From assembly GCA_900754115.1 (NCBI GenBank), contig CAAEBM010000052.1:10716-74715 (forward strand): a stretch of 64,000 nt of DNA, given 5' to 3'. Shown here piece by piece: positions 8,931 to 10,895 of this stretch (its first letter is position 1; each line of letters starts with the position of its first letter). The stretch comes from Bacilli bacterium (GTDB lineage: Bacteria > Bacillota_I > Bacilli_A > RFN20 > CAG-631). The translations under genes were made by a program, and so were the position numbers. Below the pieces are notes generated by a model, which did no database searches, was not told the origin of the DNA, and saw only the letters and a list, made by a program, of their open reading frames with translations.

Positions 8931-9005
8931 GGGTTTTAAGGTAATTAGATTCGGTAGTAAGTATAAAATTAATAAAAAATGACCCAACGATAAGACATCG
9001 TTGGT
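8931..9005. repeat. copy 1 of a ~75-bp direct repeat (gggttttaaggtaattagattcggtagtaagtataaaattaataaaaaatgacccaacgataagacatcgttgg); it is the 5' part of a terminator block, truncated inside the hairpin
   Basis: About 90% identical to 10811..10884. The copy breaks off at catcgttgg and continues directly into NADAR-homologous sequence. Confidence 0.85.
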
Positions 9006-9200
9006 ACTTAAAAGTTTATTTTTTAAACTTTCATTTTGACTAAATTTGGCTAGCAATCCTTCGTACACAACAATTTGCCTTATTCCATTCCAAGATTTGT
9101 TTTGCCACTTTTTGGTCGTTCAAAAAAAGTACCTTTTGATACATCATAAACTGTTCCATTAAAAAAAAAGTTTAACTTTCAATCATAAACTCTGATGTAA
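8997..9200 (-). pseudogene. NADAR/YbiA-family gene fragment: an internal ~200-bp remnant with an ~80-bp internal deletion, no start and no 3' end
   Basis: About 85-90% nucleotide identity to 11089..11370 of the intact NADAR gene. The encoded YEGLLAKFSQNESLKNKLLSTND stretch is identical. Frame-disrupted and truncated. Confidence 0.85.
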
Positions 9201-9440
9201 ATGATGATATTAAAGACTTAGAAGAAGCTTTATTAAATTATAATAATATCAATGGTGATGTAATAATATTTGAAGAGAAATTTAAACGCTTTATTGATTC
9301 ATTAACTGTTCTACCAGAAGTTGAATTAGATATAATCTTATTTTGTGTTTCTCAGGTGCTTCTAGATAAAAATAATGAAACTAGGGAAATAGATGTAACG
9401 ATACAATTCAAGTTTGAAGTTTAATGATAACCATTTTTTT

Positions 9441-9480
9441 GTTTCCCAAAAATGTAAAAAATTTGAATTTGGGAAATGAA
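9441..9480. repeat. palindromic element tttcccaaa-N20-tttgggaaatg immediately upstream of the AAA-ATPase gene (left boundary repeat)
   Basis: Imperfect inverted repeat TTTCCCAAA / TTTGGGAAA. A second copy of the same element lies immediately downstream of the gene (10701..10745). Confidence 0.6.
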
Positions 9481-9498
9481 GATGCATAATACTAATAG

Positions 9499-10698
9499 GT
9501 GAAAACTATGAAACTAATCGACAGAAAAATGTATTTAAATAAAATGATTGATGTTATTGGTACTCCAGACATTAAAGTTATTACTGGTGTTAAAAGGAGT
9601 GGAAAATCTAAATTATTAGAATCATTTATTAATTATTTAATATCGTCAGATAAAGATTGCAATATCATCCATATTGATTTTAATTTAACCGATAACGAGA
9701 ATTTATTAGAATATCATGCATTAGAAAAATTTATTGAATCTAAATATGTTAAAAATGTAAACAACTATATTTTGATTGATGAAGTTCAAATGTGTGAGAA
9801 CTTTGAAAAAGCAATAAATAGTCTTCATGCAAAGGAAAAATATGATATTTATATAACTGGTTCAAATGCATTTCTATTAAGTTCTGATTTAGCAACGCTT
9901 TTTACAGGTAGAAATTTTGAAATAAAAGTTTATCCGTTTTCTTTTAAAGAATATTTTGAATATTATAATTTAAATGATCAATATGTTGCTTTTGATAGTT
10001 ATATTAAAGAAGGCGGTATGGCTGGTTCATATCTTTATAAAAACATTGATGATAAATTAGATTACATAAAAAATGTTTATGAAACTTTAATTGTTAGAGA
10101 TATAAAGGATAAATATAGAATTAAATATCCTGTTTTATTAGATAAAATTACTAATTATTTAATTGATAATATTTCTAATCTTACTTCAACTAGAAAAATA
10201 GCAGATGTTTTAACAAATAATAAAGAAAATATTAATCATAAAACTGTTGGAAAATATATTGAATATTTATGTAATGCTTTTGCTTTTTATAAATTTAAAA
10301 GATACGATATCAATGGAAAAAAATATTTAGCATCTTCAGATAAATATTACTTAGTTGATCATTCCTTTAAATATGCTAAACTGGGTACTAAAAATATGGA
10401 TTATGGAAGAATCTTAGAAAATATAGTAGCTATGGAATTGTTAAGAAGAGGATATGAAGTATATGTTGGTGTTTTGTATAAAAAAGAAATTGATTTTGTT
10501 GCAATAAAAAGAAATGAAAAATTTTATATTCAAGTTTCTGATAATATTTCAAATCAAGAAACTTTCGACAGAGAAGTTTCATCGCTTTTAAAAATTAAAG
10601 ATGCATATCCTAAAATTTTAATTTCTAAAACTAGAAATGAAGAATATCAATATGAGGGTGTTAAAATAATAGATATTGCTGATTGGTTATTAAAATGA
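9499..10698 (+). CDS. AAA+ ATPase of the AAA_14/DUF4143 type ('ATP-binding protein')
   Basis: Walker A GVKRSGKS and Walker B ILIDEV. The C-terminal domain architecture is typical of DUF4143 proteins. The gene is visibly more AT-rich than its flanks. Confidence 0.8.
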   Translation: MKTMKLIDRKMYLNKMIDVIGTPDIKVITGVKRSGKSKLLESFINYLISSDKDCNIIHIDFNLTDNENLLEYHALEKFIESKYVKNVNNYILIDEVQMCENFEKAINSLHAKEKYDIYITGSNAFLLSSDLATLFTGRNFEIKVYPFSFKEYFEYYNLNDQYVAFDSYIKEGGMAGSYLYKNIDDKLDYIKNVYETLIVRDIKDKYRIKYPVLLDKITNYLIDNISNLTSTRKIADVLTNNKENINHKTVGKYIEYLCNAFAFYKFKRYDINGKKYLASSDKYYLVDHSFKYAKLGTKNMDYGRILENIVAMELLRRGYEVYVGVLYKKEIDFVAIKRNEKFYIQVSDNISNQETFDREVSSLLKIKDAYPKILISKTRNEEYQYEGVKIIDIADWLLK

Positions 10699-10700
10699 TT

Positions 10701-10745
10701 CTATTTCCCAAAAAAGCTAAAATTACTTCATTGGGAAATGAAAAC
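10701..10745. repeat. second copy of the palindromic element (tttcccaaaaaagctaaaattacttcattgggaaatg), right boundary of the ATPase cassette
   Basis: Direct repeat of the 9441..9480 element, with the same TTTCCCAAA ... TTGGGAAATGAA structure. Confidence 0.6.
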
Positions 10746-10810
10746 AGATGATGATTAAGTTAAAAATTCGAAAAATAGTCTTATTTCACTGACTTAACTG
10801 AGTTCATGCA

Positions 10811-10895
10811 GGTTTTAGGGTAATTAGACTCGGTAGTAAGTATAAAATTAATAAAAAATGTCCCAATGATTAGACATCGTTGGGTCATTTTATTT
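10811..10895. terminator. copy 2 (intact) of the ~75-bp repeat, ending in a bidirectional intrinsic terminator hairpin (cccaatgat-tagac-atcgttggg) with U-runs on both sides
   Basis: 9-bp stem with one G-U pair. T-run gtcattttattttt on the plus strand and A-run aataaaaaatg on the other side. Shared by the ATPase (+) and NADAR (-) transcripts. Confidence 0.7.

Follow-up and report, generated by a model that had tools for sequence, protein, structure and literature searches.

The window analysed here is a 64-kb stretch (64,000 nucleotides (nt)) of contig CAAEBM010000052.1, assembly GCA_900754115.1, from a Bacilli bacterium of the CAG-631 lineage. Directly after its LD-carboxypeptidase gene ldcA lies a transcription-terminator block fused to pieces of a NADAR gene (copy 1); a stump of a recombinase gene and an ATPase cassette follow, and then the same block again beside an intact NADAR gene (copy 2), with secDF closing the locus on the right. 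This feature is an ordinary one, a recombination scar together with a pseudogene; the small islet that holds it is lineage-specific and made up of candidate defence genes, and the repeat is the scar of adding the islet's left half. As to how that half was added, we favour, with guarded confidence, a single event in which insertion and duplication arose together.

A collinear repeat with two gaps

Repeat search, gapped local alignment and BLAST identified window positions 8932-9199 (268 bp) as a collinear, same-strand copy of 10811-11360 (550 bp), to which it lies 1.9 kb upstream. Identity between the copies is 249/268, or 92.9% (BLAST E 1e-25 to 1e-40), and a 34-nt core of the terminator block, expected zero times in the 64-kb window, is present at exactly two places. 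The repeat is confirmed as real and far beyond chance and, being collinear, equally oriented and more similar than chance allows, it is a segmental direct duplication. A preliminary description of this DNA had proposed such a terminator-NADAR duplication, and alignment with indels called bears out both the duplication and its collinearity; the identity of about 85-90% given there was an underestimate, and the homology, said to reach 11370, ends at 9199/11360.

Positions 8932-8995/9004 against 10811-10874/10883: repeat block 1, 59 of 64 identical, or 68 of 73 (93%)
Positions 8996-9093 against 11089-11186: repeat block 2, 94 of 98 identical (96%)
Positions 9094-9199 against 11255-11360: repeat block 3, 96 of 106 identical (91%)
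Positions 10875-10883: first CATCGTTGG, in the right arm of the hairpin, left end of a 214-bp segment
Positions 11089-11097: second CATCGTTGG, inside NADAR, right end of the 214-bp segment
Positions 11181-11253: span from TTCCA to TTCCA, 68 bp of which are gone from copy 1

Two segments of copy 2, one of 214 bp and one of 68 bp, are missing from copy 1. The longer one is framed in copy 2 by the 9-mer CATCGTTGG (10875-10883 and 11089-11097), in the terminator stem and in NADAR just where this 9-mer had been placed before; copy 1 has the 9-mer singly, at the joint (8996-9004). The 68-bp segment is likewise bounded by TTCCA in copy 2 (11181-11185 and 11249-11253), which is present once, at the joint, in copy 1 (9088-9092). 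Because both segments are found in the NADAR homologues of two comparison loci, L025 and L026, the gaps reflect loss from copy 1 rather than gain in copy 2. With repeats at both ends and one unit kept at each joint, both have the form of microhomology-mediated (slippage) deletions, so that two slipped-mispairing events can be read directly from the sequence. The earlier proposal that one copy collapsed by microhomology-mediated deletion and then decayed holds in kind; where it had seen one such deletion there are two, the second internal loss, put at about 80 bp, measuring 68 bp with a TTCCA repeat that had gone unnoticed. Slipped mispairing between short direct repeats was classically described for lacI. 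The two deletions here, bounded by repeats of 9 bp and 5 bp, have nothing unusual about them; the repeat used by the first lies in a terminator stem and in coding sequence.

The duplicated arrangement is identical in at least seven assemblies that come from different samples and different assemblers (metaSPAdes, MEGAHIT, scaffolded). L001/L004, L003 and the left part of L005 are 100% identical to the window and L002 is 99.9% identical, while in the right part of L005 and in L050 the sole differences are scaffolding artefacts and runs of N. Contigs built with k=31 (Logan) break exactly at the shared 31-mer edges, 8980 and 11111. That short-read assemblies do break at repeat edges is what speaks for an assembly artefact, in which reads of two strains or loci would have been collapsed or joined into a chimera. 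Such a join would, however, have had to arise identically in metaSPAdes, MEGAHIT and scaffolded assemblies of at least seven samples, and 7% divergence with two indels between the copies means that they are not collapsed copies of one sequence; we give this explanation almost no credence. Among the sampled conspecific assemblies, none had the single-copy form.

Public scaffolds of the locus (L005, at 8366-8446 and ~9530; L050, with 135 N) have a GC-rich junk insert inside the ATPase gene and N-runs exactly at the repeat edge (window 11357-11370); both are side-effects of the repeat on assembly, and gene calls in those records are split by them. L005/L048 and L050 were considered as alternative arrangements and rejected as scaffolding artefacts, given this GC-rich junk insert and the N-runs at the repeat edge.

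A recombinase stump at the only illegitimate joint

Between the two copies lie the following features.

Positions 9200-9427, plus strand: 228-bp 3′ remnant of a gene for a large serine recombinase (integrase), comprising roughly its final 75 codons and the stop codon
Positions 9508-10698, plus strand: AAA_14 + DUF4143 ATPase gene (Pfam E 3.1e-31 and 1.7e-17)
Positions 10762-10810, unstranded: spacer between the ATPase cassette and terminator block copy 2, with no match elsewhere

The reading frame of the first feature extends uninterrupted from 9188 to its stop codon (9425-9427), without a start codon and with in-frame stops just upstream. An exhaustive HMMER search returned three homologues of 121-230 amino acids (aa; E 1.9e-5 to 1.5e-4), aligned via their C-terminal ends, each of which matches the C-terminal third of the phrog_95 integrase (E 1e-6 to 2.6e-5). 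In addition, residues 12-77 of the remnant align to residues 425-491 of a 492-aa protein with Resolvase and Recombinase domains from a metagenome locus, L040 (31% identity, E 3e-8). In L040 3114-6703, two genes for large serine recombinases (547 and 492 aa) stand in tandem, with a PASTA-domain open reading frame (ORF) directly behind them; the second recombinase is the sole full-length relative found for the stump in the window. The fragment has the C-terminal homology of a large serine recombinase and neither the Resolvase nor the Recombinase domain; as only the last ~75 codons are there, and about 1.25 kb of the 5′ part is missing, 9200-9427 is a remnant rather than a gene. What had been described as an orphan ORF remnant is indeed a remnant, and can now be given an identity: it is evidently the 3′ stump of a large serine recombinase gene, cut exactly at the repeat boundary.

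No other recombinase was found in the 64-kb window, where tblastn with the 492-aa L040 protein matched only 9221-9418. Profile searches of the fragment and its three homologues against Pfam, NCBIfam and PDB were uninformative, and neither tblastn of P0361 and P0363 against phages and plasmids nor an IMG/VR scan with alignment A1 returned anything.

The break in the recombinase coincides with the end of the repeat. This joint, 9199/9200, is the sole illegitimate one and interrupts NADAR near codon 20 and the recombinase near codon 420. Its position bears on the order of events in the preliminary description, in which a tandem terminator-NADAR duplication came first and the recombinase remnant and cassette were inserted between the copies later. 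The two copies do directly flank the insert, but an independent insertion would have had to hit precisely the one position, out of about 1,100 bp, at which the copies were joined; moreover, a transposase, terminal inverted repeats and a short target-site duplication are all absent from the insert, and at its left end stands a truncated gene, not the end of an element. We consider this order very improbable, and the single event that we favour is the more economical account. For similar reasons a transposon insertion with target-site duplication was rejected: direct repeats flank the insert as they would there, yet they measure 268/550 bp instead of 2-15 bp, the left end is a truncated gene, and no transposase ORF lies between the copies.

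Decay of copy 1

Positions 8932-9004, unstranded: terminator block copy 1, 93% identical to 10811-10883
Positions 8996-9093, minus strand: NADAR pseudogene fragment, about codons 79-111, 96% identical to 11089-11186
Positions 9094-9199, minus strand: NADAR pseudogene fragment, about codons 21-55, 91% identical to 11255-11360
Positions 8814-9068, minus strand: spurious ORF, 84 aa, running from the NADAR fragment through the antisense terminator block into antisense ldcA
Positions 10811-10895, unstranded: terminator block copy 2, with a whole hairpin at 10855-10891 and T-runs on both strands
Positions 10940-11419, minus strand: intact NADAR gene, 159 aa (Pfam NADAR E 1.5e-50; PDC-M42C, PADLOC E 2.3e-76)

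The repeat covers the intact NADAR gene up to 11360, at about codon 20. Of its counterpart in copy 1, the fragment at 8996-9093 matches Pfam NADAR positions 93-116 (E 3.5e-4) and is fused to the terminator stem at CATCGTTGG, and the fragment at 9094-9199, which meets the former across the 68-bp deletion at TTCCA, carries an AAA>TAA change at codon 29. NADAR codons 1-20 and the last 48 codons (112-159) are absent, and the 68-bp deletion shifts the frame. With copy 2 intact and copy 1 bearing these disabling lesions, copy 1 is evidently a dead NADAR fragment, that is, a pseudogene. The ORF called at 8814-9068 begins with 24 residues that equal NADAR residues 88-111, goes on across the terminator block and finally runs antisense to ldcA for 115 bp; as had been supposed, it is an artefact of the pseudogene.

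Changes between the copies were polarised by L025 (a 97% identical allele) and L026 (85%) over 203 shared coding columns, among which 14 sites differ. Nine of the 14 are private to copy 1 and fall on codon positions 1/2/3 as 2/3/4, AAA>TAA included; this even spread, with a stop codon among the changes, points to neutral decay. One or two sites are private to copy 2, and at three, all synonymous third-position transitions, copy 1 shares the state of L025. The non-coding block has diverged at 5/73 positions, similar to the coding part. Some of the divergence between the copies may be older than the event that produced them, with site numbers too small to decide.

An older divergence is what one would expect if copy 1 were the relic of an older resident NADAR system, overtaken by homology-facilitated illegitimate recombination, a process reportedly described by de Vries and Wackernagel in 2002 in naturally transformable bacteria. 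Here, linear DNA of a diverged strain, carrying the recombinase 3′ part, the cassette, the terminator and the NADAR operon, would have been anchored on its right by homology in that operon and joined illegitimately on its left inside the resident NADAR, making copy 2 and everything rightward donor DNA. The geometry fits, as foreign DNA would come in by one homologous anchor and one illegitimate joint, and pre-event allelic divergence would account for the 7% divergence being similar in coding and non-coding parts, for the three synonymous sites that copy 1 shares with L025 and for the one or two sites at which copy 2 alone is derived. The nine differences private to copy 1 look, however, like post-event neutral decay, third-position transitions such as the three shared sites are prone to homoplasy, and no donor-type genome was found; furthermore, the usual outcome of the process is replacement, whereas here a duplicate was retained. 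We think this course of events distinctly unlikely and retain the single insertion-duplication event as the preferred reading.

An islet between ldcA and secDF

The flanks of the locus are formed by two genes and a hairpin.

Positions 7900-8928, plus strand: ldcA, LD-carboxypeptidase, the conserved left flank of the islet (Peptidase_S66 + S66C; Pfam E 2.6e-24 and 6.9e-19)
Positions 12725-12781, unstranded: strong hairpin (-27 kcal/mol, z -6.0) beside the secDF stop codon, at the right edge of the islet
Positions 12782-15211, minus strand: secDF, the conserved right flank of the islet

In a sister species (L024, ~78% nt identity), homology to the window runs up to 8929, stops, and resumes at 12778; ldcA and secDF are convergent there, 61 bp apart, with a hairpin of their own. 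The more distant L038/L039 have the same ldcA-secDF adjacency with full synteny on both sides. In L024 and L038 the gap measures 58-61 bp and holds one shared hairpin (L024 8030-8098; L038 7018-7075). Since ldcA is directly convergent with secDF in two relatives, all of 8930-12777 is taken as an insertion in this lineage; by this comparison it is a 3.85-kb lineage-specific islet of mobile defence-candidate genes, and the deeper ancestral state is evidently ldcA next to secDF. In the window the pair is split by 3.85 kb, the strong hairpin staying with secDF while ldcA keeps a hairpin stump.

These relatives also revise the idea of an ancestral order of ldcA, terminator and convergent NADAR. It was found in no genome, all conspecific assemblies having the duplicated arrangement and the two nearest relatives having ldcA convergent with secDF; because the NADAR operon is itself inserted, it can be at most a hypothetical intermediate. 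A scan of GTDB genomes with LdcA returned only relatives of 31-37% identity and no congeners.

Two candidates for the boundaries of inserted DNA were discarded. The start of the terminator block (10810/10811), tried as a serine-integrase att half-site, has no convincing dyad symmetry by eye, and a 21-nt inverted repeat (8869-8889/12614-12634), tried as the ends of the islet, is indistinguishable from 76 chance-level inverted repeats in this AT-rich region.

A site empty in relatives, together with a recombinase remnant inside the islet, is expected of site-specific integration and suggests a further route to the repeat. A whole element (serine recombinase, ATPase cassette, terminator and NADAR operon) would have been integrated between ldcA and secDF; within it, 9200-11360 would have been duplicated in tandem by unequal or illegitimate exchange between sister strands. 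A deletion of about 3 kb would then have removed everything from the ldcA stop to the terminator block start, taking with it the 5′ part of the recombinase gene and the first of the two remnant-cassette units, and the two small deletions would have followed. A joint between 11360 and 9200 is exactly of the tandem-duplication type, and this route dispenses with a naive ldcA-terminator-NADAR strain, none of which was found. It requires, though, an extra large illegitimate deletion whose left end would lie no more than 3 bp from the ldcA stop and the islet boundary and whose right end would fall exactly at the block start, and no microhomology is visible there (ATAAAAG/GGTTTT versus TCATGCA/GGTTTT, the slash marking the boundary). 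Tandem duplications, moreover, normally collapse by homologous recombination and not by such a partial deletion. This in-situ route is possible though unlikely.

State of the two terminator blocks

Of the terminator block, copy 1 keeps a 50-nt leader, the left arm of the hairpin, the loop and just 8-9 nt of the right arm. Its plus-strand T-tract is gone, and the leftover stem of 8-9 bp scored as terminator-like on the minus strand only. In copy 2 the hairpin lies 49 nt downstream of the NADAR stop codon, folds with -17.3 kcal/mol (z -5.1) on the plus strand and -12.8 kcal/mol (z -3.5) on the minus strand, and scored as terminator-like on the plus strand. A stem-loop with an A-run and a T-run between convergent genes, it is a predicted bidirectional intrinsic terminator. 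Its stem contains one T-T mismatch and one G-T wobble; in contrast, a hybrid stem composed of the left arm of copy 1 and the right arm of copy 2 is a perfect 16 bp with -23.3 kcal/mol on both strands, which argues that copy 1 keeps the older state at two stem positions at which copy 2 has drifted. The terminator of copy 2, earlier called intact, is complete as a hairpin but has changed since the copies split; it looks functional without being pristine.

We infer that ldcA now has no canonical terminator, and because what follows it is a hairpin stump devoid of a plus-strand T-tract, transcriptional read-through from ldcA into the islet is likely.

A 29-nt core of the terminator block had no match in a JGI metagenome scan. 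For the spacer, the terminator block and the upstream region of the DUF3990 gene, BLAST against the other fetched loci and the remainder of the window gave nothing beyond L025.

Origin of the repeat

The reading that we consider the best explanation, and the most likely one, is a single illegitimate joint followed by a Campbell-type crossover, by which insertion and duplication would have come about together. The 2,161-bp segment 9200-11360, containing the recombinase 3′ end, the ATPase cassette, the spacer, the terminator and the NADAR 3′ part, would have been closed on itself by one illegitimate recombination that joined 11360 to 9200, either as a tandem-duplication joint or as an aberrantly excised circle in the manner of lambda-dgal. 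This segment would then have entered a recipient locus that already read ldcA-terminator-NADAR, through one homologous crossover inside A, the 550 bp of terminator-NADAR sequence common to both. The product would be ldcA, A, recombinase remnant plus cassette, A and the rest of NADAR. As one crossover yields the order observed, insertion and duplication would be the same event, and the crossover being homologous would explain why the repeat brackets the insert precisely. Later, slipped mispairing between the two CATCGTTGG would have cost the left copy 214 bp, and with them the 3′ half of the hairpin, the T-tract and the last 48 NADAR codons; it would then have lost 68 bp between the two TTCCA and gathered neutral substitutions.

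Campbell-type single-crossover products are well known, as are aberrant-excision circles such as those of the lambda-dgal/dbio specialised transducing phages. The present locus resembles them in that direct copies of the homology flank the insert, insertion and duplication arise together, and a single novel, illegitimate joint cuts one element gene and one flanking gene. It differs in that no circle, donor or naive recipient was observed, the homology is just 550 bp long, and one copy has been eroded by deletions.

Several points weigh against this single-event reading. Neither the recipient (a single-copy ldcA-terminator-NADAR locus) nor the donor (an intact recombinase-cassette-terminator-NADAR array) occurred in any collection searched, namely 22 contigs with exact LdcA, 22 with exact PDC-M42B, GTDB genomes and JGI metagenomes, a search limited to exact-protein look-ups and one exact DNA pattern. 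As no intermediate was found, the order of events is drawn from geometry and parsimony only. Microhomology at 9199/9200 could be assessed only with an intact close homologue of the recombinase. The three synonymous sites at which copy 1 has the L025 state could mean that the copies come from different strains, which would fit a variant of the single-event reading without being required by it. Finally, terminator activity, read-through and any part in defence are predictions.

Candidate defence systems in the islet

The remaining genes and palindromes of the islet are as follows.

Positions 11416-11835, minus strand: gene for a 139-aa protein of no Pfam family (PDC-M42B, PADLOC E 3e-78)
Positions 11841-12494, minus strand: gene for a DUF3990 protein (Pfam E 1.7e-37; PDC-M42A, PADLOC E 3.3e-122)
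Positions 9443-9475, unstranded: upstream 33-bp palindrome TTCCCA-N21-TGGGAA, overlapping the ATPase promoter
Positions 10705-10737, unstranded: downstream 33-bp palindrome, 7 nt after the ATPase stop codon

The DUF3990, 139-aa and NADAR genes are adjacent and co-oriented, overlap or abut, and match the PDC-M42 hidden Markov models over their full length; they constitute a three-gene candidate defence system. No mention of NADAR together with DUF3990 was found in the literature searched. At 85% nt identity, this operon (10931-12528) recurs beside acetyltransferase-LigA-PcrA in L026-29, without the terminator block, and its recurrence there argues that it is portable in its own right. Its DUF3990/139-aa/NADAR counterpart in L026 lies at 438-1997.

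The ATPase matches the PADLOC candidate PDC-S01 over its full length (residues 1-396, E 3e-142) and would be a candidate single-gene defence system. PDC-S01, an ATPase fused to a PD-(D/E)XK domain, is among the commonest candidate defence genes and is unvalidated (PMC12988326). The GC content of the cassette is 20-24% against ~30% in its flanks, and the predicted promoter of the gene comprises a -35 element TTGAAT (9463-9468) and a -10 element CATAAT (9485-9490).

The two matches to TTCCCA-N21-TGGGAA in the window compare with 0.01 expected. In homologous loci the upstream palindrome lies at -65 to -73 from the start codon (6/6 loci) and the downstream one 1-7 nt after the stop codon (5/6 loci). 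The arms co-vary within a locus, and the ATPases of these hosts are only 70-90% identical. Palindromes were located at L030 467-499/1731-1763, L031 759-791, L032 3931-3963/5199-5231, L041 2934-2966 and L044 4192-4224.

DNA homology to foreign ATPase loci extends only from ~9437/9443 to ~10742/10761, ending just outside the palindromes (at ~10761 in the case of L030), at 90% identity in L030, 75% in L031 and 70% in L032-37, and all the neighbourhoods are different. The cassette had been described as inserted material, which its presence at 70-90% identity in unrelated contexts corroborates. Positions 9443-10761, the ATPase gene with its two palindromes, are evidently a discrete portable unit, in which the palindrome pair could be an operator pair or a recombination site. 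An integron gene cassette is likewise a single gene between imperfect palindromes. That identity was nevertheless rejected: TTCCCA-N21-TGGGAA has no attC core (RYYYAAC/GTTRRRY), its upstream copy overlaps the promoter as an operator would, and neither an integron integrase nor an adjacent tyrosine integrase was present.

The closest foreign copy of the cassette is L030 (positions 1-1924; Logan SRR14630094), at 90% identity. Its 25-nt ends are identical, which implies a circular or tandem path of ~1.9 kb, and the path also holds a truncated 3′ fragment of a PASTA-domain gene. L030 may be another instance in which the cassette moved together with a piece of a gene that it had captured. Elsewhere, in L032-L037 (e.g. 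L032 1-7056), the cassette lies amid PemK toxins, a RepL-like gene and a second AAA_14 fragment, with an rve integrase also nearby in L034; these neighbourhoods are plasmid-like or mobile-element-like. When the whole islet was compared by blastn with plasmids and phages, it gave only distant (65-79%) and partial, gene-level matches.

It is conceivable, though quite unlikely, that the PDC-S01 gene and its two palindromes form a mobilisable cassette, a small circle or tandem unit that takes up flanking DNA and re-enters a genome via the DNA it has captured.

Meaning of the repeat

Like known defence islands and hotspots, the locus combines two candidate systems and an integrase remnant at a site that is empty in relatives. 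It differs from them in being very small (3.85 kb), in that both systems are candidates, and in that the integrase is a 228-bp stump.

For the annotation of this genome, the ORF at 8814-9068 is to be treated as spurious, the orphan ORF as a serine-integrase stump, and PDC-S01 and PDC-M42 can be labelled. Beyond that, the locus offers a base-by-base example of how a defence islet at the conserved ldcA/secDF site may have been assembled, through a single illegitimate joint and a homologous crossover, and then eroded by two deletions of the slippage kind. More potential than in the duplication lies in the palindrome-flanked PDC-S01 unit, the same palindrome standing on both sides of genes of this subfamily in distant hosts, and in contig L030, which carries the unit. 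If it were indeed mobilisable, long flanking duplications like the one described here would be accounted for, L030 would be a second instance, and the spread of a common candidate defence gene across phyla would become easier to explain.

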